Positions 9,940 to 30,779 of a DNA stretch of 64,000 nucleotides are shown in pieces. The translations under genes and the position numbers were made by a program. Each line of letters begins with the position of its first letter. Position 1 is the first letter of the stretch. The DNA is taken from assembly GCA_963798485.1 (NCBI GenBank), contig CAWCTR010000001.1, forward strand, positions 27,453 to 91,452, given 5' to 3'. The notes below the pieces were generated by a model. That model was given only the letters and a program-made list of their open reading frames with translations, ran no database searches and was not told the DNA's origin. The stretch comes from an uncultured delta proteobacterium. GTDB taxonomy: Bacteria; Desulfobacterota; Desulfomonilia; UBA1062.

Positions 9940-11799
9940 TTAGGTAATAATATTTTTGAAGCCCCGGCCCCACAGCATGTTGTTCAGGCCGGAGACACGA
10001 TGGGTCCGTCTGGATACTGCGGCAGAGAATATCTCCATAGCGGCCCAGATCTCGATTGCGCCCCTGGCCCTGGTTATGCCGGTATAGACGAGTTCCCTGG
10101 TGAGCACGGGAGAGTCACGCTCCGGCAGTATGAGCAGCACGTTCTCGAACTCGGACCCCTGGCTCTTGTGGACCGTCATGGCAAAGGCGGTCTCGTGTGC
10201 CGGCAGCCTTAAGGGTGAAATCTTTCTGACAGACCCGTCCCTAGCCACAAAGCAGGCGCGCAGGTCATCCCCATCGCTTACGATGAGCCCGATATCGCCG
10301 TTCATGAGCTTCAAAGTATAGTCGTTTTCTGTGACGAGCACGGGCCTGCCGTGGTAATGCAGCCTGCCGGGCTCGATCAGGCCCGCGCCCTGCAGGATCT
10401 CCTCGACGCAGCGATTCAGCGCCTTTACACCGTATGGTCCTTCGCGGACAGGGCTCAGGATGCGCAACGTCTCGAAGAGCTGGAAGCACTCATGGATGTC
10501 GTCCGAAACAAGAAAACTTCCATATCTCTTGGTGACGATCTCTCTCAGTGACCTTTTCAATTCTCCCGGCAAAGGCAGTTCCTGCCGGCTAAGATCCTTT
10601 CCGTGGCCTGAGTGGAGTATCTCAAGGGATCGGCTGATATCTCCCGAGTTTACTGCCTCGCCCAGGGCGAAGATGGCGCTGTCTTTGCTGAACCGGTAGG
10701 TCCGGGTGAGCTCCACCAGCGAGTCCTGCATACCGCCTTCATCGCCTGCGGGCACGGCGCACCCTGTGGTCCTGGCCACAAGCCCGGCAAAGTCAGCCGA
10801 ATAGGCGTGCGAGCCGCCCACATCGCAGATATCCCCGAGCACGTAGCCTGCCTGAACGGAAGCGAGCTGATTTTTGTCGCCCAGGAGGATAAGGCGGGCG
10901 TTTTCCTTGAGGGCCTGGACGAGGTATGACATGAGGGCCAGGTCCGCCATAGACGCCTCATCTATGGCGATGACATCTGCACTTAAGGGGTTTGCTGCGC
11001 AGTGCCTTGGCAGTGTTGACCCGGGAGAGAATCCGAGGAGCCTGTGGATAGTGGTGGCCTCGTGGGGGATCATGGCCTTGATCCCCGGTGCGCAGTCCAT
11101 GAGTTCAAGGCTGCGCTGGATGGACTCTTCGATCCTGCGGGCCGCCTTGCCCGTAGGGGCCGCCAAGGCGATCTTCAGGTGAGGCTCCTGCTCGAGGAGC
11201 AAAGCCATGATCCTGCAGACGAGCGTGGTCTTGCCCGTGCCCGGCCCGCCCGTGATCACGCATAAACCCCTGGATACGGCAGCCGCAGCCGCTGCCTTGT
11301 GCCGGTCATGCCCGTCGGTCCCGTCCGGGGGAAACATGCGAGCGAGCCCCCTGGTGAAAAGGGCTTCGTCAAAGGGCATGACCCGGGCGTTCAAACGCAG
11401 CAGGACATCGGCCAGTCTCCGTTCGTTCTCATAGGAACGGTGGAGATAAAGCCTGCCTGACCCGTCCAGGATCAGGGGCCGATAATCGCCCGGGCCGCCC
11501 ACTACCGGGCACAACCTCAGGGCTGATATCCAGGCATCAGGTGATGGCAGGTCCAGGACAGCAGGCCCGGCTTCTTTGCCAATCATCCCTGTATTGATTT
11601 CGTTCAGATCCAGGCAGGTGTGCCCTTCCCTGCTGAGCCTGCTCACAAGGGCCGCTGCAAGGGCAAGCTCAGCGCTCTTCGAGCCTGCAAGCTGCACCAT
11701 GAACCGGGCGAAGTGCACATCAATGGGCTCGAAGAGACCTTCGGGCAGCATCAGGCCCTGCTCAAGACCTTTCTTGAAGTCAACAGCATCATACGCCAT
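9940..11799 (-). CDS. recD: Exodeoxyribonuclease V alpha subunit
   Basis: ITGGPGTGKTT, APTGKAA, TIHRLL, DEASM, GDKNQL, TVHKSQGSEF and YTGITRA motifs. Confidence 0.96.
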   Translation of the reverse strand: MAYDAVDFKKGLEQGLMLPEGLFEPIDVHFARFMVQLAGSKSAELALAAALVSRLSREGHTCLDLNEINTGMIGKEAGPAVLDLPSPDAWISALRLCPVVGGPGDYRPLILDGSGRLYLHRSYENERRLADVLLRLNARVMPFDEALFTRGLARMFPPDGTDGHDRHKAAAAAAVSRGLCVITGGPGTGKTTLVCRIMALLLEQEPHLKIALAAPTGKAARRIEESIQRSLELMDCAPGIKAMIPHEATTIHRLLGFSPGSTLPRHCAANPLSADVIAIDEASMADLALMSYLVQALKENARLILLGDKNQLASVQAGYVLGDICDVGGSHAYSADFAGLVARTTGCAVPAGDEGGMQDSLVELTRTYRFSKDSAIFALGEAVNSGDISRSLEILHSGHGKDLSRQELPLPGELKRSLREIVTKRYGSFLVSDDIHECFQLFETLRILSPVREGPYGVKALNRCVEEILQGAGLIEPGRLHYHGRPVLVTENDYTLKLMNGDIGLIVSDGDDLRACFVARDGSVRKISPLRLPAHETAFAMTVHKSQGSEFENVLLILPERDSPVLTRELVYTGITRARGAIEIWAAMEIFSAAVSRRTHRVSGLNNMLWGRGFKNIIT

Positions 11800-11956
11800 T
11801 TGTTTTGACCCTTTACTCATCAACAAGTATAATATCAGTTCATCCGGAACAAGCCTTCTTTGCCAGGCACTGAACATAACTTGCTTTGATCGTATACTTT
11901 GCTTTCATCATGAATACTTTGCATTGATCATATATCCCTCCCCAATCGACAATCAG

Positions 11957-12390
11957 GTCCCCTCCCCCCTTGCGGGGGAGGGACAGGGAGAGGGGTATGA
12001 ATAAAATTAATCTCCAACGAGCAAGAGATCTGAGAAAACGATCCACAGACGCGGAACGCCTCCTGTGGAAGCACCTCCGCACAAAGAGGATGAACAACCT
12101 GAAATTCAAGCGGCAGCAACCAATCGGTAATTATATTGTGGACTTCATCTGCTTTGAGAAAAGGATCGTTATCGAACTCGACGGCGGGCAGCATGCACTC
12201 CAGAGAGACAAGGACAAGGGGCGCGACTCCTGGCTGGAAGGCCAGGGCTTCCTCATCCTGAGATTCTGGAATAATGATGTCCTCACCAATATCCATGGTG
12301 TCATGGAGGTTATCATACGTACTTGTTCTGAAGCCCATAGCCTTTAATCTGCCCCCTCTCCCTGTCCCTCCCCCTTGCGGGGGAGGGGAC
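11957..12390. mobile_element. DUF559 nuclease gene enclosed by ~38-bp inverted palindromic arms (family A, gene-carrying form)
   Basis: 11957-11995 GTCCCCTCCCCCCTTGCGGGGGAGGGACAGGGAGAGGGG is the reverse complement of 12352-12390 except for the loop. The arms abut the start and stop codons, and the unit separates recB from recD. Confidence 0.7.
11997..12347 (+). CDS. DUF559 / Vsr-like endonuclease domain protein
   Basis: RARDLRKRSTDAERLLW, KFKRQQPIGNYIVDF, IELDGGQH, RDSWL and LRFWNNDV motifs. Confidence 0.93.
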   Translation: MNKINLQRARDLRKRSTDAERLLWKHLRTKRMNNLKFKRQQPIGNYIVDFICFEKRIVIELDGGQHALQRDKDKGRDSWLEGQGFLILRFWNNDVLTNIHGVMEVIIRTCSEAHSL

Positions 12391-12452
12391 TTAAATCCCC
12401 CAACCTATTATGGAACATCCTCATCATATTAGCACTTTCGAGGGGCCAATTA

Positions 12453-12492
12453 ACTCCTCCCCCCTTGATGGGGGAGGCTGGGAGAGGGTGAA
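12453..12492 (+). repeat. Family A palindrome, solo copy
   Basis: ACTCCTCCCCCCTTGATGGGGGAGGCTGGGAGAGGGTGAA is nearly identical to 13185-13223 inside recB. Confidence 0.9.
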
Positions 12493-12509
12493 TATGGAAT
12501 AATTCCTTA

Positions 12510-16375
<3,866 letters not shown>

Positions 16376-16382
<7 letters not shown>

Positions 16383-19300
16383 TTGCCAGCCTCCAGAGAG
16401 TCGATGAGAGGACCGTACACCGTCATGGCCAGCTCGCGGAACTCGTCATCCAGGGGATCAGTGCCTGCAAAGCAGATCCGTATGGCCGCATCTTCGCTTT
16501 CACCGCTCTTATTCCAGCCCCCGCTCCAGGCCTTGCCAGCCTCCTGCATGGCCCTCTGTTCATTACCCGTCTTCTTCATGTGCTCTGCATAGGCGTACGA
16601 GCTTTTGGGGAAGAAATGGAGCGGCCGGCACAGGCCCTGCCAGTACACGTCCAGGAGCCCCTTCAGCACGGCAAAAGGCTCCTCCCCAGAGCTGATGCAG
16701 GCCTGCCCTGCCTTGTGGATGTGCATGCCCGCTACCTGCGCACCCGGGCTCACGGCCTTGAGCAGGAGCACGCTGACCCAGGCCCGCATGAGGTCGCCCG
16801 GTTTCAGGTCCGCATAGCGGAACGAGAGGAACCCGCCGCGGCCAAGACAGTCAACTGCCCCGGTGATCGTGAAGGCGCCCACGGTCACGCTCACGTCTTT
16901 CCTGACCATCTCATAGCCCGCCATGGCCCGCCTGATGAGCGGGAGGAAGGCATCGATCTCACTGGCAATGCCTGCAAGCGCCAGCTCTCCCGGCACGCCG
17001 TGGGGCAGCACCCCTTCGGCCCTGAGCCGTGCCACGTCCGTCTCGCAGCCCTTTCCTCTCAGCCTCTCAGCCAGGATCCGCTGCTGCAGTCCGTATTGAT
17101 CGAGACCCGTTATGGCAAAGGGCTCCCGGTCGAGGAGTGCATCTTCCTCCCGGGGCAGCACAGCGCCAAGGCGGTGCCTCAGGAAGAACCGGGCCGGGTT
17201 CCGGAAGAACTCCAGGAGGCGCTCCATGTTCACGCCCAGCCATTCTTGCTCGGGTTCGGAAAGCCTCACCGCCTCCCCCTGCCCTGCCTGTGCCCCTGTG
17301 CGGAGCGCCCTGGCAGCGTCCGCATTGTCCCTGGAATAGCTGAACAGGCCCGTGCCTGCGGTGAAGTATTTGGGGTTGAAGGCCTGGAGGCAGTGGCGCT
17401 TCACCACTCGCTTGCTCACCGGCCCCTCCGGGCTCGTAAAGGCCCTGTCGAGGTATTCCAGCAGGCTGCTCACCACCACCGAGGGCGGGATAGCGGCATT
17501 GTCCTGGATGCCCTGGCCCACGTGGCTGATGGAGAGCACGTTACGGGCCGAGAGCAGGGCCTCGAGGAAGAGGTAGAGGTCGTCTTCGCGCCGGGAGCGG
17601 TCGCCCTTGCGCGGGTGCATGGACATGAGATCGAGCCCGCTTGCGTAGTCCCTGCGCGGGAAGGATTCATGGTTCATGCCCATGAGGCAGATCACCTTGA
17701 ACGGGATGCTCCGCATGGGCAGCATGGAGCAGAAGGTGACCCCGCGCTCCAGGAACCCGGCCCCTTCCGCGGCACTGCCGAAGGCGTTGCCCAGGTGGTG
17801 CCGCACCACGTCACAGCTCACCGTGCCGGTGAACCCGGCATCCCGCGCGATCTTCTCCAGGTTCCGCACAGCGGATTTCAGCCGCAGAAGCTCCGAAGGG
17901 TCTCCTCATCCGCAGCAAACAGGTCGTCGATGATCGTGAGGAGCACCTGTGACCATTCGCCAAGCCCCCGCTCCTGCCTGAGCTCGTCGACTATGGCAAA
18001 GAGCCTCTCCACGAAATCCACAAAGCTGCCCAGGAGATCTGCCGAGGCAGGGTCCATGCCGGTCAAGGGTGCGATGCCCTCGAACAGCTCTTCTCCCCCG
18101 CCATGGCATAGCCCAGCAGGAGCCTCTTCAGACCGAAGCCCCAGGTGTTCTCCTCAAACCCGGGCAGGCCCATTGCCTCTTTATCACGACCGTCCCTGCC
18201 CCACCGGATGTTGGCCCCAGTAACCCATGCATGGACCTTCCTCACCGCCTCCTCGTCCATGCCGAACCGCGCCCGCACCGGCGCCTTGTCCAGCAGATCC
18301 ATGACGAGCGAAGCCTCGAAGCGCTGCCCAGGCAAATCGAGCACAGCCATGAGCGCATCCGCCAGCTGGGAGCTGCGCCTGAACGACCGGTCCGAGATGC
18401 TGTAGGGTATGCGGCGCGAATCCCCCCTATCCATATCGAACACGGCCCGTATAAAGGGCGCATAAGACTCAATATCAGGCGCCATAACCAGCACGTCCCG
18501 CGGCTCCAGCCCTTCCTTGCCCTCCTCCCCCTCCTTATCTTCCTCTCCCCTCTGGGGAGAGGACTGAGGTGAGGGGTACCTTTTACCCTCCTCCCCCCTG
18601 GTGGGGGAGGATTGAGGAGAGGGGGACAAAGGAGAGGGGGAATTCTCGAAGAGTTCCAGCAGCGTATCCAGCAGCACCTCCACCTCCCGCATGGGGCTGT
18701 GACACGAGTGCACCTGGATAGAGCAATCGCCAACCTCCACCTCCTCCGCCCCCTCATCGCCGCTCGTCCTCAAATTCAATATGTCATCCTGAACCTTAGC
18801 CAGCATGGTAGCTCGCCCGCCCCCCACAAACAAATCCGTCTCCTCAGGCTCCAGATCAATGACCATGTCCAGGAAGTTCCTACCAAGCCTGCCCATGCTT
18901 GCCAGAAGATCATTGCGCGATTCCAGGTGCAAATCCGCCTCCGGCACCTTGCTAACGAACCTGGTGATGCGCCTTTCCGGCATGATGTCCGCCCAGTATT
19001 CCCTGCAGGGGTTCAGGCAGTAGAGGCTGACATCCATCAAAGCGGAAAGACCCTTCAGCACCTCCAGATGGAATGCAGGCAGATACGAGATGCCGAAGAT
19101 GGACACCCTCTCGGGCAGCTTCGACACATCCGAGCGCGCAAGCCCGCTGCTGAAGAGCTGCTTGAGCCGGGCGCGGTGGTTCGCATCGTCCCCTTCAACA
19201 ATCTTGTTCCAGAGCACGGCCTGCCAGTTCTCCGGGTAGCCCGCAGGCGCATTGCCGCCCTCTTCCCACCCGAGCACCAGCTCGGGCCTGAATATGACAT

Positions 19301-19715
19301 ACTGGTCATAGATGTTCGCCATCATGGCGCTGAACTGGTAGAGCTTCATGCCTGCAGTGTCGCCCTGGAGGTAGTCCCTGATCCGGCTGAAGCCGCCCAA
19401 GCCCAGGAGCCCGGGCAGACAGTCCATGATGCGCAGCGTCATGGCATCCTTCTCGAACAGAGCGGGCTGCGTGACCCCCGGCAGGATGCGCGAGAACATG
19501 TCCAGCACAAAGGCATTGGGAAACGGCCAGCTGACGTTCGCGCACACCCCGCTGCTGCGCGCCAGCTCCATGGAGAGCCAGCGCTGCATGCCGCGGCTCT
19601 GCACAACGATGACCTCGGGAGCAATCGGCGATGAGAGCGGTTCGGACAAAGATAGAGCAAGGGCCTGCGAAAGGACCTCGAGCCGGTTGCTCTCAATAAG
19701 TCTCAGGCCTGACAA
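16376..19715 (-). CDS. recC: Exodeoxyribonuclease V gamma subunit; frameshifts near 18090 and 17880; in-frame repeat insertion
   Basis: SNRLEVL, VVQSRGMQRWL, LNPCREYWADI, HSCHSPMREVE, PRDVLVMAPDI, FCSMLPMRSIPF and FLEALLSAR motifs; upstream of recB. Confidence 0.95.
18511..18640. repeat. Two tandem family A palindromes inside recC
   Basis: 18541-18576 TCCTCTCCCCTCTGGGGAGAGGACTGAGGTGAGGGG and 18588-18625; they encode PSPQSSPTRGEE and PSPQSSPQRGEE. Confidence 0.88.
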
Positions 19716-19777: not shown

Positions 19778-20995
19778 TCATAATGCATGGAATGGGGTTG
19801 CCGTGATATTGGGAGCCAGCGGCAGGGATGTACTGCCGAGATGGACAAGCCAGCCCTTTTCGGTTTTGGCGGAATAGTCTTCCATGAACGAGATCAGGCC
19901 GGACGCCATGGAAGGCCTTGGTGTGGCGGTCTGCTTGACCTCAACAGGGATGAGCCGTCCATGGTGTTCGATGACAATATCCACTTCCTTTCCGTGGGTT
20001 GTCCGCCAGAAGTACAGACGCGGTTCGAAACCACTGTGGAACGATCTCTTGACAAGCTCGGAGATGACAGCAGTTTCGACGATCGCCCCGGCGAGTGGTC
20101 CTGCCGAGGCGTGGGCCGGATCACTGAGCCCTGTCAGGTAACAGAGCAGGCCCACATCGGTGAAGTAAACCTTCGGTGTCTTCACGAGGCGCTTGCCCAT
20201 GTTCTCGAAATACGGCCTAAGGACGATGACCTGAAAGGTCGCTTCCAGCACCGAAAGCCAGGCCTTTGTCGTGTTCACCGCAATGCCTAAGTCCCTCGAG
20301 ATATCCGTGAGGTTGAGCAGCTGTGAGCTGCGGGCCGCCAGTACGCGCAGGAAATTCTGGAACCCGGAAAGGTCCCCGATCTGCTTCAACTCCCTGACAT
20401 CCCGTTCGAGATAGGTCTGAACATAACTGGAGAACCACAGCGCCTGGCTTCGATCCGGCTCGACGGCAAGCTCAGGGTATCCTCCCCTGAGAAACCGTTT
20501 CCAAATGTCCTGAAGGGGCACTTCCCTGTTCTGCACTGCACGGCCCCGCTCCCAGGGGAGCTTTGAGCGGGGATTGCGGTCAAGCTCGCTCATTGAAAGC
20601 GGCAGCAGCCTCAATATTGCACTCCGCCCTGCAAGGGACTCGGTCACCCGCTTCATGAGCATGAGGTTCTGTGATCCGGTTATGAGGTATCGGCCCTTGA
20701 GCGACCGCTCGCTGTCTATGCTTTCCTTGATATACGGCAGCAGTTCGGGGGCATACTGGACCTCATCCAGGATGACCGGAGGTCCGTAGATATCGAGAAA
20801 CCCCCGGGGGTCTGAGAGTGCAGCCGAACGCACATCCGGCGCCTCAAGGGACACATACCGGTGGCTCTTGCCGAACAGATGCTTGAGTAGTGTGGTTTTT
20901 CCTGACTGCCTGGGCCCGGTCAGGACCACTGCGGGAAACTCCCTTGCAGCCTTTTTCAATACCGGCTGGAGGGATCTTTCAATGTATGCGCCCAT
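19778..20995 (-). CDS. AAA+ ATPase with DUF4143-type C-terminus
   Basis: LTGPRQSGKTT, LDEVQ, TGSQ, ESLAGR, RGGYP, TYLERDV, PKVYFTDVGL and EVDIV..IPVEVK motifs. Confidence 0.92.
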   Translation of the reverse strand: MGAYIERSLQPVLKKAAREFPAVVLTGPRQSGKTTLLKHLFGKSHRYVSLEAPDVRSAALSDPRGFLDIYGPPVILDEVQYAPELLPYIKESIDSERSLKGRYLITGSQNLMLMKRVTESLAGRSAILRLLPLSMSELDRNPRSKLPWERGRAVQNREVPLQDIWKRFLRGGYPELAVEPDRSQALWFSSYVQTYLERDVRELKQIGDLSGFQNFLRVLAARSSQLLNLTDISRDLGIAVNTTKAWLSVLEATFQVIVLRPYFENMGKRLVKTPKVYFTDVGLLCYLTGLSDPAHASAGPLAGAIVETAVISELVKRSFHSGFEPRLYFWRTTHGKEVDIVIEHHGRLIPVEVKQTATPRPSMASGLISFMEDYSAKTEKGWLVHLGSTSLPLAPNITATPFHAL

Positions 20996-21149
20996 GATCA
21001 CCTCAATTGTGTAATTATGCATTCAGATTGCACGATTGCACATAGCATGTCAAGAGGTCTCCGTTTTATGTCAGGGCTTTCAGTTTGACACGCCCTGAAC
21101 CGGAATGTACTATTACTATATAGCCTGTGGATAAAGAAAAGGGGAAGTC

Positions 21150-21556: not shown

Positions 21557-22823
21557 GTTCACGCCTAAATTTCTAGAAGGGAATGCCTTCGTCCTCCTGG
21601 TTAATAGACATCTCAAATAAATTTACCGGTGGTAACGTTGCACCCTTGGGATCCAACCTTCCAATTAGCTTGAATCGACCGACGTCGATAAGACCACCCA
21701 CATCGGTGGCTAACTCTCTTATATGCTCCGTCACTACGCAGATAGATTGCTTGTCATTGACTCTAAACTTGGTCTTGGTCTCTGATTCGATTCGCGCACA
21801 GAGGGGTATTGCGGTTGACCAACCGAGATCAGTTATTTGCGAATCAATAAATGGACTCGTCTCTTTGGTCGAGCACATCGTGTAAACGAGCGCCACTCCG
21901 AGACGCGATGCTACGTGCCGCAGGGCAAAAGCTGTCCGAATAGCTGCGTCAATATTCTTAATACGAAGCCAACAACCATCGTTGTCTGACGTCTCAATAA
22001 ACACTGATGCATCGGTTGAAAACATCGACATTAACTGGCGCTGAATGGCCTCTATAATCTCCATACGATTCTTTGGCTCGTAGCTACTTGAATTAGCTAA
22101 ATCATATAGAAGGACGATTTCATTCTGGACGGGCTCCTTGATAAGTTCAGGAACAAGATGTTGCACGTATGATTCATAGATATCGCTGACTATGCGGATC
22201 ACAGTATCTGCATGTTCAAACACACTCTGTTGAACAGCCAATACTAAATCGGCGGACACTAACAAAGGAGGGCCTGGCAAAGTGAAACGACGCATATGTG
22301 GGTATTTTTCGAGCAGTGTCGAAAGCGCACTTCCCACCTCCGCCCAACGAGACGCAAGGTCAATTTCAGGGATGCTATCCCGTTCATCCCGAATCAGGCC
22401 GCAGGTGGAGAAAAGAGTGCGAAAGTATGTCGTCAGTTCACGAAGTAAATTATTGAACCAATAGAGTATCCCTATAATGTCTCGATTTCGAGGACTGAGT
22501 TCTGGATTAATAATCGATTTAAGATACTTATTTGCAAATGGCTCTAGAGCAAAGAAGGGTGCTCTCTCATCGGTGAACAAAGCAGAGATTCTACTACGTA
22601 AATCGAGCCCAATTGCTTTGAATACTTGCGCCTTGTTTCTGGCTTGTAGACAGTATGTTGCAAGGTTTTCAAGCGTCTTTGCAATCTCATTGAGTAGACG
22701 TTGATATTCTGTAGCCGTATTGTCGCCGTGTAAGTCCAAAAGATCATGCCATGATTTCAGTAGGTACTCAATATTGTATTTTGGGTGCCTAAACCAAAGC
22801 CGAGGTAATTCACGAACAGCATC

Positions 22824-23446
22824 AGTCATAACCTCCGGCAAAGCCGGAGGCTTGATTAAACCATGAACCGCTCAAAGCGGTTTAACCCGAGTACCTTTGT
22901 CCCTAGCTGAATATGTTCATCTGCTCAAGCCGCTGGTCTTCTTGCTCCTGCTTCTTGATGTATGACCGGACAACTTCCTCATCCATCCCTACCGTGCTCA
23001 CATAGTAGCCCCTGGCCCAAAATTGCTGACCCGTGAAATTCTTCCTCCGCCCCAGGTATGCCCGTGCTATATGTATCGCACTCTTCCCCTTGATATACCC
23101 GATCACTTGGGATACCGAATACTTCGGCGGGATCGATATCAGCATGTGTATATGGTCCTGCATCAGATGCCCTTCGATAACTTCGCTCTCCCTCTGTATG
23201 GCCAGTCTCTTCATCACCTCACCAAGATACTTCCTCAACTGCCTATACAACGCCTTCCTTCGATATTTCGGTATCCATACAACATGATACTTGCATTCCC
23301 ATCGGGTGTGCCTTAGACTCTGTTCTTCTTCCATGTTTTGCCTCCTCTTCTGTAAACTTTGAGCGGTTCACAGTTCGGAGGCTCTTCAATTTTCCCGGAA
23401 TTGTCAAACTCCGGTGAGTCACCCCGGCATAGCCGGGGGTTTACCT
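22824..23446 (-). mobile_element. IS200/IS605-family insertion sequence (tnpA only, ~623 bp)
   Basis: Subterminal hairpins CCCCGGCTATGCCGGGG and CCTCCGGCTTTGCCGGAGG; GAACCGCTCAAAG inverted at both ends; no target duplication seen; inserted after TTAT. Confidence 0.92.
22903..23334 (-). CDS. tnpA: IS200-family Y1 (HUH) transposase
   Basis: KYHVVWIPKYRRK, DHIH (HUH), IKGKSA, FWARGY and SYIKKQ (catalytic Tyr) motifs. Confidence 0.97.
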   Translation of the reverse strand: MEEEQSLRHTRWECKYHVVWIPKYRRKALYRQLRKYLGEVMKRLAIQRESEVIEGHLMQDHIHMLISIPPKYSVSQVIGYIKGKSAIHIARAYLGRRKNFTGQQFWARGYYVSTVGMDEEVVRSYIKKQEQEDQRLEQMNIFS

Positions 23447-25668
23447 ATAAGAAATTATATCTTCCTGTTTGCCGCACGTGGAAAGAGCAAGTAGGCGTTC
23501 ACCGGGAACACCTGAAATCGAGTTCACCGCAGTATCATCGCCAATAAAAGCCAAACAAGTCTGCACAAAACCCGATAGATCAGGCAAAAGATGACGATCA
23601 TCAAGCGGTGAATTTTGAAGTGGGTTTCTTCGGATCCATTTTTTCGAGATACTTATTTCTGTACGGCTACTTTTTCGTTCCACATTAAAGAGTCCAATGT
23701 TCTCTCCCCAATTGGCAAGCGTTTGACGCTGGCCTTCTGTATTTGGTTCAACACGTGCACCAAATTCGTCAATCACTCGTTTTAGCTGCAGGTCCCGCAT
23801 GTCAGGGTGATGGCGAAGCCCGGAAAGAAGAACAGCGGATGCAATTTTTTCGAGCATAAACTCCGACAACCATTTACGCTTCTTACTGTATCTTGGAATC
23901 TGTTTCTGCAACTCAAGGACAAGACATGCCATAAAGTACTGAGTTTTCTTTGCCTTTGTACCATATCCGTTCTCGCCATATCTGTAGACTCGGAGCCATC
24001 GCCCTGGCTCGTTATCGTATGGCACATCAAAAACAAATTGAGGAACTGCTGCACCGGTATCCACAAGCTCATCAATTGCTTCAGATAGCTCATATTGAGT
24101 AAGCTTCTTTTTCGAATTCAGAAGGTATCTAAGTTCACCAACACTGAAGCCCACAGAGAGGCGTCTACGTCTGTCTGTTCTGAGTGCACGCTCTCTACGT
24201 TCATGCTCGACGTATGAAATGTTTAGCAACTCTCCGATCAATTCCGTCGATGTTCTCTCTGCCGGTGAAATCGCTTTGAACGGCTCTAAGGATTTCTGAA
24301 CTAGCACGTTTCGTTTGAGCCTCTTTTGTACAAGTTCGGAAGCTTTATCGTATGATGACGACGGATGATCAACATCTGTTGCTATTGTGGGATGCATGCT
24401 CGACCATGTTAGAAGTTCGGTCATTTTATATAAAACTTGCTTCCCTACAATTGGACCGAATAGGTACACAAGGTCCTCAAACGACCAAGAAAGTTCTGAC
24501 AAGTCAACTTGAAGAATGTTGCCGAGAGACAGCTTTTCCCAAGCTTGGCCGAGAATGTGAAGACCGCAAAGGAAGTAGGCAAGAACGTAGGTACGATAAG
24601 AAATACAATCTATATCCGGGTCATGGTTGCAGAATTCTCGGTTTAGGACACTTCGAATTAAGTCGCCATAAGGGTTGTCTACACCAACAGTTTCCTGTTC
24701 AAATAGACTGGCTCTATCTGGTACCCATTCAAACACATGCATTGGAACGATTCTGACCACATTAGTGTCGAAATAGAATCGAATTTTGGAAATGCCTGTT
24801 TCCGAAATACCCAACGTATTCAGAAACGATGGTCGAAATGCATTCTCAGTAAGATCAATACTAATACTCCTCGCACCATCAGATGCGTCACCGACTTTCC
24901 ACACTGCATGGGGAGATATGAGCTTCTCGATCTCATGTATTACTTGTTTTTGCTCAATACGAAGCGGGGCGTTTGCTATAGGATAGTCCAGATCGAACGG
25001 TTTACAGAGTCGACCCATAGCTGTTACTAGTGCATTGTTAAATGTTGATGCTTGCTTAAAGGTCAAACCGAGTGCATATCTTGGTCGGACCAATTCGGTA
25101 TTCAGTTGATATGTATTAATTGCTATAGCATAAGGGATTGGCTTACCTCCACAAGCTGAAACGAGTTGGCATACGTATTTCAAGGTACTACCGTAGATCG
25201 CGATATCATCTATAACAGGAACTTCCTCCCCCTGGAAAAACTCATGCGGTAGGAAAGCGAGACTGCGGTCGGTTAATACCTCCAACCCGTGAAGGTGTTT
25301 CTGTAGTGGTCCCCGTTTGCATATGTCAAATAATCGTGGCCCCTTGCGAGCAAGCGCGACAACATATCTAGCACCAGTGCCTTGGATATCTTCGAGAACT
25401 TTTTCCATGGCATCGTGATAGCGATTCTCAAAAACAGTTTCGTCGTTAATCAATGAGAATGATTTATCGTTCATTGGGAATATGGTTTCTTTATTGGCGA
25501 TAGCAGTCCATAACATCGTATCCATCTGTTCCATACCCGAAACTTGCAACCAATGCAAATCAAAATATCCAGTGTTGTCACCCATATCATAATTTCTAAA
25601 AAATTAACATCATTGATACCCGATTGAAGTCCAGCATTTTTTATTTAGGTTGATGTTCTGGAATAAGT

Positions 25669-25770
25669 AAAGGGGACGTTTCTATTTTCCACTCTCCGTT
25701 ACAAATATTAAATAAATAGAAACGTCCCCTTTTTTCCCCTTTTTTCCCCGAAACGTCCCCTTTTTTCCCC
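25669..25770. repeat. Family F perfect 19-bp inverted repeat with a tandemly re-copied 3' arm
   Basis: AAAGGGGACGTTTCTATTT (25669-25687) and AAATAGAAACGTCCCCTTT (25714-25732), then CCCCTTTTTT repeats and a second GAAACGTCCCCTTTTTTCCCC. Confidence 0.9.
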
Positions 25771-25913
25771 TCAATCTAACTTACTTATTGCATCCTTTTG
25801 ATAAGCCTAAATGATGGTCAAATGCCTTATTTCGGATGAACATAAAAAATGATTCCTCCATATTTGAATATATTACACATAACCTTTTTATAGCTTACAT
25901 TTTCTGTCCTGTT

Positions 25914-28268
25914 TTACCCAATCATATCATTAACAAGAGAAAGGAGATGACGTCCTAGAATACCGTTATCCAGAAATGTTGCTATCTCTTTCCGTAAGTC
26001 CTTATCATCAGATATATTGAGTAACCAATCAATGACATTTGTTATGAAGTGTTTTTCAATTAACTTATGACTTATAAGCAATTCCCATATCCTATCATTA
26101 TAGGGATTGCCTGGCTTGAATCCAGTCTTATGATGACGATATCGAATGGTCTGGAATCCATAATCACCTTTGAATTTCTTAAGTGCTCTAGTAAGAGCAT
26201 CTTCTGCCAAAGCTTTCTTTATTTCTAAACTTATGCCAGTTTTTCTGATTTTGTTAAGTTCATACTCAGATTCCTTTGAGCAACTTGGGTCGACAATCTG
26301 AATCTCATTTTCATTATCACATGAAATAAATGATAGTGTACCATTGAATATGGAATTAATGAACTTGCTTTCAGTTGAAAAGATACAGTTTTTAAACTCT
26401 ACATCTACAAATGTACAACTTATGAATTCAGTATTACATAAATCATATGCTTTCAATTGACCTGTGAATGTCGTTTTACGGAACCTTATGCCATTCTTCG
26501 ACTGTTCGGCCTTCAGAATAGTAGCCAATCGCTTTATACGTTCCTGCTTGTCTTCACCTAGTACGAGCCTGCTGGCGAGATGAAAAAGAGCCATTGATGA
26601 TGCTTTTTGGATATCACTGAATTCAAAATTTTGTTTGTCAGAGATGATATCCATTGCATGATGCATTGCAGAAAGTAGCCTGACTTCATCAAGAGCTCGC
26701 AATTGACGAATCAGCCAATCAAGTACTTGTGTTTTTCCAGTACTGTTCTCAGCAAGAAGTCGGGCAATCTTTGATCTATTTGTCTTTCCTGTAGTATTTA
26801 TTAAACCAAAGGCCAAGAAACGTGCGAGAAAGTATACACAAAGAACCTCATATCTTGGTCCGAACTTTTCTTTGTCTAGCCGTGCGAGAAAAACATGACT
26901 TGTAAACCTCTGTACAACTGATTGGTCTTTTACATCACAGATTATCTCAAGGAATAACCGCAGATCATCTAATGTAAAAGATTCCGGAAATTCTCTAAAA
27001 AGTTCCTCAAATAACTTAAGTTGGACTTGGGGGTCTATCTCAAGTGTTTGGCGTTTGTTTTCGCGGCGACAAATATCTTCGAGAAGACTCGCAAAAGGAT
27101 CGGACTTATAGGGATTAGCTTCTGCATCTGGATTATCATGTACATAGCGTGCTATAAGATCAAGAATAAAAGGTACACCAGATGGTTTGTCTTCATTCAA
27201 ACCTTCCTGTATGATTTCTTCATACACTCCCCCGCTCACTTGCTTTGATATCCTATAAGCAACATCGCGTTCTGAAGGATTAGAAAGGCGTGCGGTAAAG
27301 TATCTTTTTCGCTGTCTGTTATCAAAACCTTTAAGTCTGTAAACACTCAGTGCAGAAGTGTCAATGTCATCCTTAACAGATTCCCAAAAAGTTTCACGTG
27401 CAGTTAGGAGAATTCGAGCTTGTGGAGAGTCATCCTCTGGAGTAGCCAGTTCTATCAATTCTTTTAGGATCTCATCTGGTCGAAATCCTCCACCAGGGAC
27501 TACACATAATTCATCGAAACCATCAAAGATAACTAGAAAAAGTTCTTCACGAACTAAAACTCTTAATGCTGTTTCGTTACCCATTAGACGACTAGCATGA
27601 TCAAAACGCCGAGAAATAGCTCGATCCCATACAGTATTCATTGTTAGAGCTGCCTGCTGGATTAAATGTCTCCATTGATCTGATTCAACAAGAATGGGAA
27701 TAACATTTTCATCTTTTGAATGAAGTCGTTGGCACAACATTCGTGCTACTGTTGTTTTTCCGACACCACCATTAGCAATCAATACTGATATTCCTGAAGA
27801 TGTTTCAATACCAGTTCGTCTAAGCATCCATTCAGAGAGAACCTTTGTAGCTTCGTGTGCGCTTCGGCCATCTGGTAATTCTATATCAGGATCAATAAAA
27901 TATTCATTTTCTGGTACTGGTTTCCAAGAAAAGTTATTTAGGAAACTATCAATTAATAGCTGTTTCGATGTTCTTATGGAAGTAGAGCTAAAAGTTGTTT
28001 TTGTTTGAGATAAATTCTTAGCCAGCTTACTGCCAGGCGTAACAATAACTTCATAACTCGATCCCTTACTCCATTCTTTCCAAAGTCGAAGGTTTTCTGA
28101 TGTAGCCTCCTTCATAGGACATTTATGCTTTAAATACAAATATGAACCCTCAACATTAGACACAGGGGTTCGGTACACAGCTTTCCAAAAATCCCAGTCT
28201 TTCGCTTCGTGTATAAGGTCTATTTGGCTTGCCCCAAGTGTGGAGAGTATCTCATTGAAATGTTTCAT
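25914..28268 (-). CDS. NACHT/STAND-type NTPase with C-terminal pentapeptide-like repeats (putative antiphage protein)
   Basis: Walker A IANGGVGKTT, Walker B VIFDGFDEL, ILLTARE and GVPFILDL; periodic F....F repeats; AT-rich. Confidence 0.85.
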   Translation of the reverse strand: MKHFNEILSTLGASQIDLIHEAKDWDFWKAVYRTPVSNVEGSYLYLKHKCPMKEATSENLRLWKEWSKGSSYEVIVTPGSKLAKNLSQTKTTFSSTSIRTSKQLLIDSFLNNFSWKPVPENEYFIDPDIELPDGRSAHEATKVLSEWMLRRTGIETSSGISVLIANGGVGKTTVARMLCQRLHSKDENVIPILVESDQWRHLIQQAALTMNTVWDRAISRRFDHASRLMGNETALRVLVREELFLVIFDGFDELCVVPGGGFRPDEILKELIELATPEDDSPQARILLTARETFWESVKDDIDTSALSVYRLKGFDNRQRKRYFTARLSNPSERDVAYRISKQVSGGVYEEIIQEGLNEDKPSGVPFILDLIARYVHDNPDAEANPYKSDPFASLLEDICRRENKRQTLEIDPQVQLKLFEELFREFPESFTLDDLRLFLEIICDVKDQSVVQRFTSHVFLARLDKEKFGPRYEVLCVYFLARFLAFGLINTTGKTNRSKIARLLAENSTGKTQVLDWLIRQLRALDEVRLLSAMHHAMDIISDKQNFEFSDIQKASSMALFHLASRLVLGEDKQERIKRLATILKAEQSKNGIRFRKTTFTGQLKAYDLCNTEFISCTFVDVEFKNCIFSTESKFINSIFNGTLSFISCDNENEIQIVDPSCSKESEYELNKIRKTGISLEIKKALAEDALTRALKKFKGDYGFQTIRYRHHKTGFKPGNPYNDRIWELLISHKLIEKHFITNVIDWLLNISDDKDLRKEIATFLDNGILGRHLLSLVNDMIG

Positions 28269-28586: not shown

Positions 28587-30779
28587 ATGTCTATCGAGCG
28601 TAATTTTGATATCCCCCTGATCGCCTCCATGGCGCTCAAGGAGAAACAGATACAGCAAAATTACCGGCCCATCATCGCCGTGCATAAGTGGTTCGCCCGC
28701 AGGCCCGGGACCTTGTTCCGGGGGCTGATCCTGTCCGAATTCAGCAACGAACCCTTATCCAAAACCTTCTTCCACGCAAATGACTTTCCCCACAAGACCA
28801 TTGCTGACCCATTCATGGGTGGCGGTACGCCGTTGATCGAGGCCAACCGCGTGGGGTGCGACGTGCTCGGATTCGACATCAACCCCATGTCAACTTGGAT
28901 CGTACGCGAAGAGATCGAACACCTTGACCTCAATGCCTATGGCATTGCTGCACGGGCATTGATCTCGGACCTGGACAAGGAGATCGGCGGTCTCTACCGT
29001 ACCGACTGCCACATCTATGGGGACAAAGACGTGCCGGTGAAGTACTTCCTCTGGGTAAAGGTTCTTCGCTGTGAGAAATGCGGGAAAGACATGGACCTCT
29101 TCCCCGGATACCTTCTTGCACAGAACCGGCGGCACCCCCGCAATGTTCTTATCTGCTCACAGTGCGGGGACCTCAATGAGATAGAGGACCTGCATTCCCT
29201 GGGGCAATGCACGTTATGCAGTGAACCGCTGAAGCTGGAAGGGCCTGCCAAAAAAAACCGGTGCACATGCCCGCACTGCGGCCATACGAATACATACACC
29301 CGGCCTGCGGACGGTCCGCCTCGGCACCGGCTATTTCGCCTTGGAATACCACAATGCCCGGCGCAAGGCCGTCCATATTGGCAGGTTCTTTAAGAAACCC
29401 GATGCCCAGGATCTGGCCCGGTTCGACACTGCCGGGCAAAGATGGCGATCCCTCGAACCTTTATTTGTCCCTGACCAGAACATCCTTGCCGGCGATGAGT
29501 CCGACCGGCTCCACCGCTGGGGCTACGGCAGATACCGGGACTTGTTCAACGAACGCCAGCTCCTGGGCCTTGAGCTCAGCTGCCGCCTCATCGCCGCCAA
29601 TACAAACGAACGTGTTGGCAGGCACTGGCAACGAACCTCTCGGACCTGCTGCGGTACCAAAACATGCTGTGCCGTTATGATGCAATGGCGTTGAAATCGC
29701 TGGACATCTTTTCCGTGCATGGATTCCCGGTGGGCCTGGTCCAGTGCGAATCCAACATGATCGGGATCATCAACGGCTCTGGTGCACCGGTGGGTTCCGG
29801 TGGCTGGAAGAACATCATAGAAAAGTATACAAGGGCAAAGAAATACTGTGACATGCCCTTTGAGACCCGGCAGGTAAACGGACGCAAGGTGATACTGCCT
29901 ATCAAGGGTGAATGGATCGGCGAGCAGCAAAACGGCGGCCCCAAGAGAAAGATTGCGATCAAGTGCATCAGTTCGACCATGGCAGAGATCCCGGAGCAGA
30001 GCCTGGATGCAGTATTCACCGATCCACCCTATTTCGGGAATGTTCAATATGCCGAGCTGATGGACTTCTGCTATGTATGGCTGAGACGCCTTGTGGGAAA
30101 CGGACCGGATGGTTTTGACCAGGAGTCAACGCGGTCCAAGGACGAGCTGACCGGAAACGAGACACAAAAGCGCGGCATCGAGCATTTCACTCAAGGATTA
30201 TCATCGGTGTATCAACGCATGGCCCTTGCCCTGAAACCTGGCGCACCGCTTGCCTTCACCTTCCATCACAACAAGATGGAGGCATACCATGCAGTGGGTG
30301 TGGCCATCCTCGATGCAGGGCTCGTGTGCTCGGCCACCTTGCCATGCCCGGCTGAAATGGGAGGGTCGATCCATATCCACGGCACCGGCTCTTCCATTAT
30401 CGACACGGTCTTTGTTTGCCGTGCACATGGCACTGTCAACCGCAAAAATCTCTTTCAGACTTCCGCTGAACTTGTCGAGTTGGTCCGTGGTGAGATTGAA
30501 CAACTGAGCGCTGCCGGAATGACACCGACTGCCGGTGATATCCGCTGTATCGTGTATGGACACTTCACCCGCATGGGTATTTGGAACCTCCGCACGAACT
30601 GGGACCCGGCAGTGCCGATTGCAAAACGCCTGAAGATTTTTACTCATGCTGTCTCCCACATGGGAGACCTCCAGGATATTATCCACCAAATTACCATGAA
30701 GCCTTTCGAATCCAATTTGCGTATAGCTGAACCACACCAGCTCTACGGATGTGAGGACTGTGATGCCGTTTCCTTTTGA
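28587..30779 (+). CDS. Adenine-specific DNA methyltransferase with Zn ribbons (DUF1156-like N-terminus); frameshifts near 29340 and 29630
   Basis: HKWFARRP, motif I DPFMGGGT, four CxxC pairs and motif IV FTDPPY across three consecutive ORFs. Confidence 0.9.

Follow-up and report, generated by a model that had tools for sequence, protein, structure and literature searches.

On the minus strand of a 64,000-nucleotide stretch of contig CAWCTR010000001.1 from an uncultured delta proteobacterium (positions 27,453 to 91,452; assembly GCA_963798485.1), which is called the window in the following, three consecutive open reading frames (ORFs) of 714 amino acids (aa; 23441..25585), 143 aa (22903..23334) and 422 aa (21573..22841) can be found, the outer two being the halves of one gene and the middle one coding for a transposase. 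An original prediction, made from the sequence alone, had proposed that the two outer ORFs fuse upon removal of an insertion sequence (IS), and that the rejoined product carries a phosphoribosyltransferase (PRTase) motif near its N-terminus and a class III cyclase at its C-terminus. A word-indexed protein search with the N-terminal half (N-half) returned five homologues of 1070-1088 aa. In BLASTP comparisons with the homologue P0001, residues 51-711 of the N-half align with residues 2-657 (43% identity) and residues 1-416 of the C-terminal half (C-half) with residues 658-1070 (40% identity, E 3e-96), so that the two halves follow each other seamlessly in P0001; a match to the C-half was also obtained for P0004, a more distant member of the family (E 2e-9). 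Because intact homologues cover both halves across the break, the two ORFs are one gene, and a chance in-frame fusion of two ORFs can be ruled out, since the homologues cross the junction. The region 21573-25585 is thus a single gene of about 1090 codons which has been inactivated by an IS200/IS605-type insertion (Table 1).

As the alignments of the homologues begin only around residue 49-51 of the N-half ORF, translation probably starts downstream of the first codon of the ORF, perhaps at M38, giving a product of about 1090 aa instead of the ~1129 aa originally assumed. Since both halves are otherwise open and can be aligned end to end, the insertion looks recent, and the gene, which is dead in this genome, is a recent pseudogene. 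The gene is AT-rich, as had been noted before, with a G + C content (GC) of 0.443 compared to 0.547 for the window, and it resides in a region (21-29 kb of the window) with GC values of 0.36-0.47 against about 0.55 overall.

The inserted element codes for a Y1 (HUH) transposase, has GC-rich subterminal hairpins near both of its ends, lies 3' of a short target and is devoid of inverted terminal repeats, all of which are hallmarks of the IS200/IS605 family. It is present in a single copy in this genome assembly, and 13 of the 40 related genomes searched contain relatives, of which the best, from a congener, is 93% identical and covers positions 23457-22826 of the window. A contig of 2180 nt from sequencing run X1 agrees with the window at every position of 22831-23457 and diverges on both sides; because X1 thus holds the identical element in a second genomic context, the IS must lie within these limits. 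The sequence TAAT is found at the left edge in all four aligned IS copies as well as in the X1 copy, and elements of this family usually leave their target in place on insertion. If TAAT is the retained target, the element is 623 bp long and its removal restores the reading frame, as simple arithmetic shows. The limits originally proposed, 22824-23446, likewise give 623 bp and keep the frame, but they are shifted by 7 nt. With the cleavage sites deduced from these comparisons, the exact junction is probably placed to within about 2-3 codons, the homologues themselves varying by about two residues in this segment. A search for an empty insertion site or an intact orthologue found neither, both among 51 genomes belonging to the same taxonomic family and in three sequencing runs, in which contig cover is patchy and the junctions are unbridged; in X1, no contig free of the IS was seen. 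In run X1 the contig depth of the IS is about 7.8, compared to about 2-4 for the surrounding gene, and together with the second context this higher depth indicates that the IS is multi-copy or active in the X1 community.

Table 1. Features of the disrupted gene and its surroundings, in window coordinates.
Feature	Position	Strand	Remarks
N-terminal half of the disrupted gene	23454..25585	-	ORF opens at 25585; likely start ~25474 (M38)
Type I PRTase-like domain	24755..25417	-	pyrophosphate (PPi) and phosphoribosyl pyrophosphate (PRPP) loops; approximate, sequence-based limits
PPi loop LARKGPR	25354-25334	-	
PRPP loop VIDDIAIYGSTL	25216-25181	-	
KPFDLDYP motif of the PRTase-like domain	near 25000	-	
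Conserved central domain	23735..24187	-	RLSVGF, D..VD.G..VP, R..R.GE, EK and GAR motifs
IS200/IS605-family insertion	22831..23453	-	623 bp (best estimate), 3' of TAAT (23457-23454)
tnpA of the IS	23334-22903	-	143-aa Y1 transposase, PF01797 E 8.1e-38
Helical region of the C-half	22155..22830	-	four-helix-bundle-like part, then 33-residue helix into the cyclase domain
Class III cyclase homology domain	21600..22148	-	C-half residues 226-408
D241	22103-22101	-	putative metal Asp
NDG	21983-21975	-	holds D282
PLCAR	21806-21792	-	holds R344
K393	21647-21645	-	
C-terminal tail and stop codon	21573..21599	-	stop codon 21575-21573; predicted local distance difference test (pLDDT) low in the tail
recBCD cluster	9940-19715	-	recB-/recC-like matches spread over several ORFs (12510-14345, 14077-15021, 15060-16382; 16376-17869, 18063-19715)
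DUF4143/AAA_14 ATPase	19778-21022	-	PADLOC candidate system PDC-S01, whole length, E 2.6e-123
NACHT protein	25914-28268	-	784 aa, C-terminal pentapeptide repeats; PF05729 E 3.9e-9
Three overlapping ORFs	28587-30779	+	different frames; two weakly DUF1156-like

With respect to the N-half, the type I PRTase motif of the original prediction is borne out by the PPi and PRPP loops, both of which are conserved in the family and align with those of solved PRTases. A profile built from seven sequences gave 17 hits at E<=10 among the PDB sequences, 16 of them PRTases and all on the PRPP-loop region, the best match being 1vdm (E 0.0048), where ARKGPRL pairs with the PPi loop ARGG..P..RL. With a profile of 65 sequences the match to 1vdm reached E 1.1e-5, and the 60 rows listed consist mostly of PRTases, PRPP synthetases or PurR, in addition to five designed helical proteins that match the linker. 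Across 84 aligned rows, the PRPP loop shows the expected hydrophobic run followed by two acidic residues (D89 in 84, D90 in 79 rows) and then by G (G95, 84 rows) and T/S (T97, 82 rows), and the PPi loop is similarly constant (R43 in 84, K44 in 78, P46 and R47 in 80 rows each). Matches to the Pfam family PF00156 were obtained for 9 of 43 and 5 of 45 relatives (14/88), exceeding the 26.3-bit cut-off in only two of the 88, P0022 (35.6) and P0073 (29.4). At the level of its motifs, the PRTase assignment therefore appears sound.

Between this domain and the insertion site lies a conserved central domain in which R438, G442, D468, D472, G474, P478, R495, R498, G500, E501, E542 and K543 are near-invariant in the same 84 rows. 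No match for it was obtained in Pfam, among the PDB sequences or, with residues 200-660 of P0001, in the ESM Atlas. To judge from the alignment, the charged block formed by D468, D472, R495, R498, E501, E542 and K543 marks a second functional site.

As for the C-half, an AlphaFold model of its 416 residues, based on an alignment of 77 rows, has a mean pLDDT of 88.4 and a predicted template modelling score (pTM) of 0.71. It consists of helices up to residue 223, the last of which extends over 33 residues and runs into strand 1 of an alpha/beta domain, in which strands and helices follow each other as in a cyclase homology domain. With this model, Foldseek retrieved 114 PDB chains at E<=1e-3, all rows listed being class III adenylyl or guanylyl cyclases, and hhalign aligned the domain with the three PF00211 domains of this genome at E 1.4e-4. 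In the hhalign alignment, D241 is opposite the first metal Asp, R344 is opposite the catalytic Arg, and the second metal Asp lies one residue off D282 within the same NDG hairpin. The claim that the last ~185 aa resemble a class III cyclase in which both metal Asp and the Arg are kept and the usual Asn is replaced by Pro thus agrees with the model, the structure search and the profile alignment alike. In the 77 rows, D241 is found in 76, S245 in 70, D282 in 76 (with D or N at the adjacent position 281) and R344 in 75, and the putative phosphate-binding position 393, which lies beyond the reach of hhalign and is equated by motif position, is occupied by Lys in the window and by Arg (55) or Lys (8) in 63 of the 77. 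Most of the catalytic set is accordingly under selection, which favours an enzyme with activity or, failing that, a protein binding metal and nucleoside triphosphates (NTPs). For the whole protein, the ESM Atlas gave a match to Guanylate_cyc clusters with a score of 0.82, which serves as a lead only.

To assess the size of the family, 1.84 billion cluster representatives (clustered at 50% identity) were searched exhaustively with a profile; 1047 of them matched at E<=1e-3, and the count falls to 729 at E<=1e-10 and to 201 at E<=1e-30. Of 153 proteins retrieved, 87 contain the cyclase-like domain according to a hidden Markov model built from 77 of them, 11 of the 87 being outside the training set, and full-length proteins of 1035-1359 aa account for about 76 of the 87. 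No model in Pfam, NCBIfam or PADLOC covers the family, and PADLOC gave no match for any of 39 full-length members. A screen of the window's N-half with PADLOC, as suggested at the outset, likewise found no family-level model and returned a weak match to ShosT only (E 0.0033). In line with the earlier statement that the fusion is not a characterised system, no paper describing a fusion of a PRTase with a class III cyclase was found in a full-text literature search covering the text of papers, figures and bioRxiv supplements excepted. The survey of immune cyclic nucleoside monophosphate (cNMP) cyclases in the accessible text of the Pucsar preprint does not name PRTases either, although its Figure 1 or Table S1 could still include them.

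Among species genomes sampled in three phyla, the family is present in only four of 1084 (~0.4%), namely in one of 400 genomes of the host's own phylum, this being a partial and distant relative only, and in two of 400 and one of 284 genomes of the two others, and none of the 51 other genomes from the taxonomic family of the host contains it. In view of this absence and of its low GC, the gene is foreign to its host. The family as a whole is rare, patchy and usually standing alone, and its distribution is that of a mobile gene.

By comparing the members of the family it is evident that the N-terminal ~850 positions are common while the C-terminus varies, ending in a cyclase, in a deaminase with EAD7, in PRTase_III-A or in none of these. 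A cytidine/dCMP-type deaminase forms the C-terminus of five proteins, of which three carry EAD7 at E below 1e-6, one only weakly (E 5e-4) and one not at all; P0098 ends in the PRTase_III-A of retrons (PADLOC 1.1e-39; Pfam PRTase-CE 4.9e-39); in one protein a formyltransferase is added after the cyclase; and 25 relatives of 781-902 aa are without a Pfam family. According to Kaur et al. (PMC7159879), EAD7 is an adaptor recruiting effectors to NTPase-based conflict systems, in which cNMP cyclases are common signal generators. The module swaps tie the common N-terminal part to conflict systems, and the cyclase sits in a slot that is otherwise taken by nucleotide-modifying effectors.

A locus search with one alignment gave two genome loci and one metagenome locus, and in total seven further loci were examined, comprising six with the full architecture and one, L011 in genome G125, of a distant relative. 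Of the seven full-architecture loci including the window, four are located beside defence or mobile genes: in addition to the window these are L002 (genome G402), with AbiEi/AbiEii, KfrA and a phage capsid gene, L035 (G858), with DUF932, a PD-(D/E)XK nuclease and a TrwB/HerA-like ATPase, and L003 (G401), with an integrase and a 182-aa ORF that ends 2 nt before the family gene. This ORF matches the two-transmembrane (2TM) effector of CBASS (5.9e-40) and PycTM (1.1e-25) in PADLOC, as well as PycTM in Pfam (6.6e-11, above the cut-off). The distant relative at L011 (8912-12274) is a 1120-aa protein with an HTH_17 domain in front of the PRTase, a different C-terminus and no cyclase match; it is flanked by restriction-like genes, namely a DUF6094 methyltransferase/SNF2 helicase pair on one side and HerA-like genes on the other. 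No neighbour recurs across the loci. The gene usually stands alone, but the original proposal of a single-gene system has to be qualified for G401, in which the gene is coupled to a 2TM effector.

Two of these copies are incomplete. In G401 the family gene is cut by the end of a contig and its cyclase part, which keeps the D, S, R and R positions and has Glu at the second acidic site, resides on a second contig; the sequence at the high-coordinate end of contig C332 (L014) is presumably Illumina adapter, and such an adapter-like end suggests that the split is an artefact of the assembly and not of biological origin. In G402, which harbours the closest relative of the window protein (L002/L013 and L015 on contigs C282 and C22; 47-56% identity), the gene is broken by a change of frame near window residue 545 with about 87 residues missing, and near-identical inverted repeats (TTACTAAGGARTACG...) are found at both contig ends of the gap, as would be expected for another IS. 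That the two closest copies are both broken hints at a costly gene.

Upstream of the disrupted gene, the NACHT-pentapeptide gene has the lowest GC in the window (0.379) and codes for an N-terminal part of about 150 aa without an assigned domain; it looks like a separate defence gene of the NLR type (nucleotide-binding leucine-rich repeat receptors) in the same foreign island. Its location only 329 bp upstream and on the same strand made it a candidate for a functional partner, which was rejected as none of the seven other loci has a NACHT neighbour. The spacer between the two genes (25670-25790, minus strand) contains direct repeats of AAAAAAGGGGACGTTTC and a nearly perfect hairpin of about 22 pairs, with a minimum free energy of -29.9 kcal/mol (z -3.65; none of 200 shuffles as stable), which could be a terminator, an operator or the remnant of a small mobile element. 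On the opposite strand, two of the three overlapping ORFs were scanned and gave weak matches to the NCBIfam model "anti-phage-associated DUF1156 domain-containing protein" (profile positions 185-298 and 559-726 of 960), and the three together look like the frameshifted remnant of a larger methylase-like defence gene. Of the NACHT, restriction-modification and toxin-antitoxin genes that had been reported as neighbours, the first is present, but the second is represented by these degraded fragments and the third by a lone DUF433 gene. In the recBCD cluster on the other side, the scattered recB and recC matches may reflect frameshifts or assembly errors.

Taken together, the gene can on balance be considered to code for a mobile, Pycsar-like nucleotide-signalling protein with a putative role in defence or abortive infection, which has been inactivated in this genome; this is the reading that we regard as probable, though by no means firmly so. 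It is favoured because the protein has the layout of a regulated class III cyclase, in which upstream domains are followed by a long helix and the cyclase, because the catalytic set is largely kept, and because the effector gene in G401 occupies the position it would have in a Pycsar operon. A dimeric cyclase would be controlled by the domains upstream of it, acting by way of the helical linker in the manner of sensor-coupled class III cyclases, and on activation it would turn an NTP into a cyclic mononucleotide. Where a membrane effector is encoded as a partner, as with the 2TM/PycTM protein beside the G401 relative, it might be the receiver of this signal; elsewhere the protein itself might respond to it. 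By analogy with ShosT, the PRPP-dependent PRTase could then serve as a toxic arm disturbing the nucleotide pool, a role it would share with the retron III-A effectors. The toxicity of ShosT requires PRPP binding (PMC12961424), and a transmembrane gene followed by the cyclase gene is the typical order in Pycsar (PMC13069673).

Several observations weigh against such a Pycsar-like signalling protein. For the cyclase, the probability given by hhalign is only 53%, a search of the genome with PF00211 finds three other genes and misses the domain of the C-half, and the PycC models of PADLOC detect none of the 39 members. The catalytic Asn is not kept, being replaced by Pro in the window and most often by Glu (33), Val (9) or Gln (8) in the 77 rows, and R313, present in 68 of the 77, is absent from the window protein, which has Val instead, as well as from that of G402. 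The window's N-half is without any Pfam family at E<=0.1 and hence without a PF00156 match. In 23 relatives of 781-860 aa, the C-terminal 330 residues are without similarity to the cyclase profile (hhalign probability 0.1-0.2%), which implies that the core of PRTase and central domain can work without a cyclase. As regards genomic context, L004, L032 and L033 have housekeeping genes as their only neighbours, the 2TM partner occurs at only one of the six other full-architecture loci, PycTM is absent from the window genome (no PF18967) and from G402 and G125, and no matches were obtained in viral contigs (two alignments) or in plasmids (tblastn).

The most serious alternative, which is possible but distinctly less likely, assigns the roles the other way round: the PRTase-like and central domains would form a constant sensor for a ligand, PRPP or a nucleotide, in the manner of PurR, and the C-terminal module would be the output, with the cyclase itself acting as the effector by draining NTPs or by flooding the cell with cNMP. 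Such an arrangement would readily explain why the N-terminal ~850 positions are common while the C-terminus varies, PurR is among the weak matches of the PRPP loop, and the order of sensor, helix and cyclase is the usual one in regulated class III cyclases. As to the identity of sensor and effector, the cyclase-free relatives can be reconciled with both assignments. However, the PRPP and PPi loops are conserved as in enzymes, and the 2TM partner in G401 argues for the product of the cyclase being a signal and not merely a sink. In addition, the known PRTases of defence systems are toxins (PMC12961424).

Rather unlikely, by comparison, is a pseudo-cyclase, in which the fold is kept but catalysis is lost, and whose only function would be to dimerise or to bind nucleotides. 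The loss of the catalytic Asn throughout the family, that of R313 in the window copy and a sequence too diverged to be recognised by PF00211 would be in line with this, and inactive cNMP cyclase domains have been noted in conflict systems by Kaur et al. (PMC7159879). Yet the near-complete conservation of both metal Asp and of the Arg, and that of the phosphate-binding Arg or Lys in most members, is hard to explain without either catalysis or the binding of metal and NTP.

The least probable explanation is a housekeeping adenylate or guanylate cyclase that senses PRPP or purines and reports the status of the nucleotide pool, for while most class III cyclases are physiological sensors, three of the seven full-architecture loci lie among housekeeping genes and PADLOC finds no match, a gene of such rarity that is lacking in the host's own taxonomic family and resides on a low-GC island, whose sister forms carry defence-type C-terminal modules, which is adjoined by a 2TM effector in one relative and whose two closest copies are both pseudogenes, is difficult to reconcile with such a function.

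Going beyond the Pycsar-like signalling protein favoured here, it is conceivable, if fairly doubtful, that the protein is a self-contained immune protein which senses infection and whose own cyclase product switches on the PRPP-consuming PRTase, in cis or between molecules, so that the nucleotide pool collapses or is corrupted, or in which both enzymes together build a non-canonical signal nucleotide. If so, the common N-terminal part would constitute a new defence platform, open also to modules of the deaminase, retron-type PRTase and formyltransferase kinds, and the signal would be exportable to a 2TM effector.

For the annotation of this genome, the immediate consequence is that two ORFs have to be replaced by one gene interrupted by an IS. 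More generally, a sizeable family that is invisible to Pfam, NCBIfam and PADLOC will be missed by current defence annotation. A class III cyclase welded to a conserved enzyme region that putatively binds nucleotides or PRPP might also offer a handle on how infection activates cyclases of the Pycsar type, and the swappable C-termini, i.e., cyclase, deaminase with EAD7 and retron-type PRTase, join three nucleotide-based themes of defence on one chassis.

When compared to the known systems, the family differs from Pycsar, which consists of PycC and PycTM or PycTIR, in that the cyclase of the window is the last part of a protein of ~1090 aa, where it follows a PRTase and a large conserved region. 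The PycC models miss all 39 members; neither PycTM nor PycTIR is encoded beside the window gene, and a 2TM/PycTM gene accompanies one relative. With sensor-coupled class III cyclases such as Rv1264 and soluble guanylate cyclase it shares the layout, but it lacks the Asn of their Asn-Arg pair and is distributed like a mobile gene, and a PRTase as N-terminal module of such cyclases was not found in the literature search. The NTPase-centred conflict systems described by Kaur et al. (2020) and as "immune clade 1" in the Pucsar preprint are similar in that the cyclase is part of a large multidomain protein, and the sister forms carry EAD7, the adaptor of those systems. However, STAND, vWA-MoxR and VMAP components are all lacking in the family protein, the NACHT neighbour of the window is not recurrent, and, figures excepted, the text and legend of the preprint name NACHT, AP-ATPase, AGS-C, E2 and others as partners of immune cNMP cyclases but not PRTases.

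Finally, the family resembles ShosT and the retron type III-A PRTase (PRTase-CE) in having a PRTase with a PRPP loop. ShosT weakly matches 45 residues of the window protein (118-162), PRTase-CE weakly matches the N-termini of P0079, P0103 and P0088, and P0098 carries a true PRTase_III-A domain, albeit at its C-terminus. In contrast to these systems, the N-terminal PRTase matches stay below the family thresholds, the PRTase is part of a chain with about 850 more residues, and no DprA-like ShosA, reverse transcriptase or non-coding RNA partner was found in the flanks scanned. By its architecture, the family would therefore appear to combine cyclase-based nucleotide immunity with a PRTase of the defence type.

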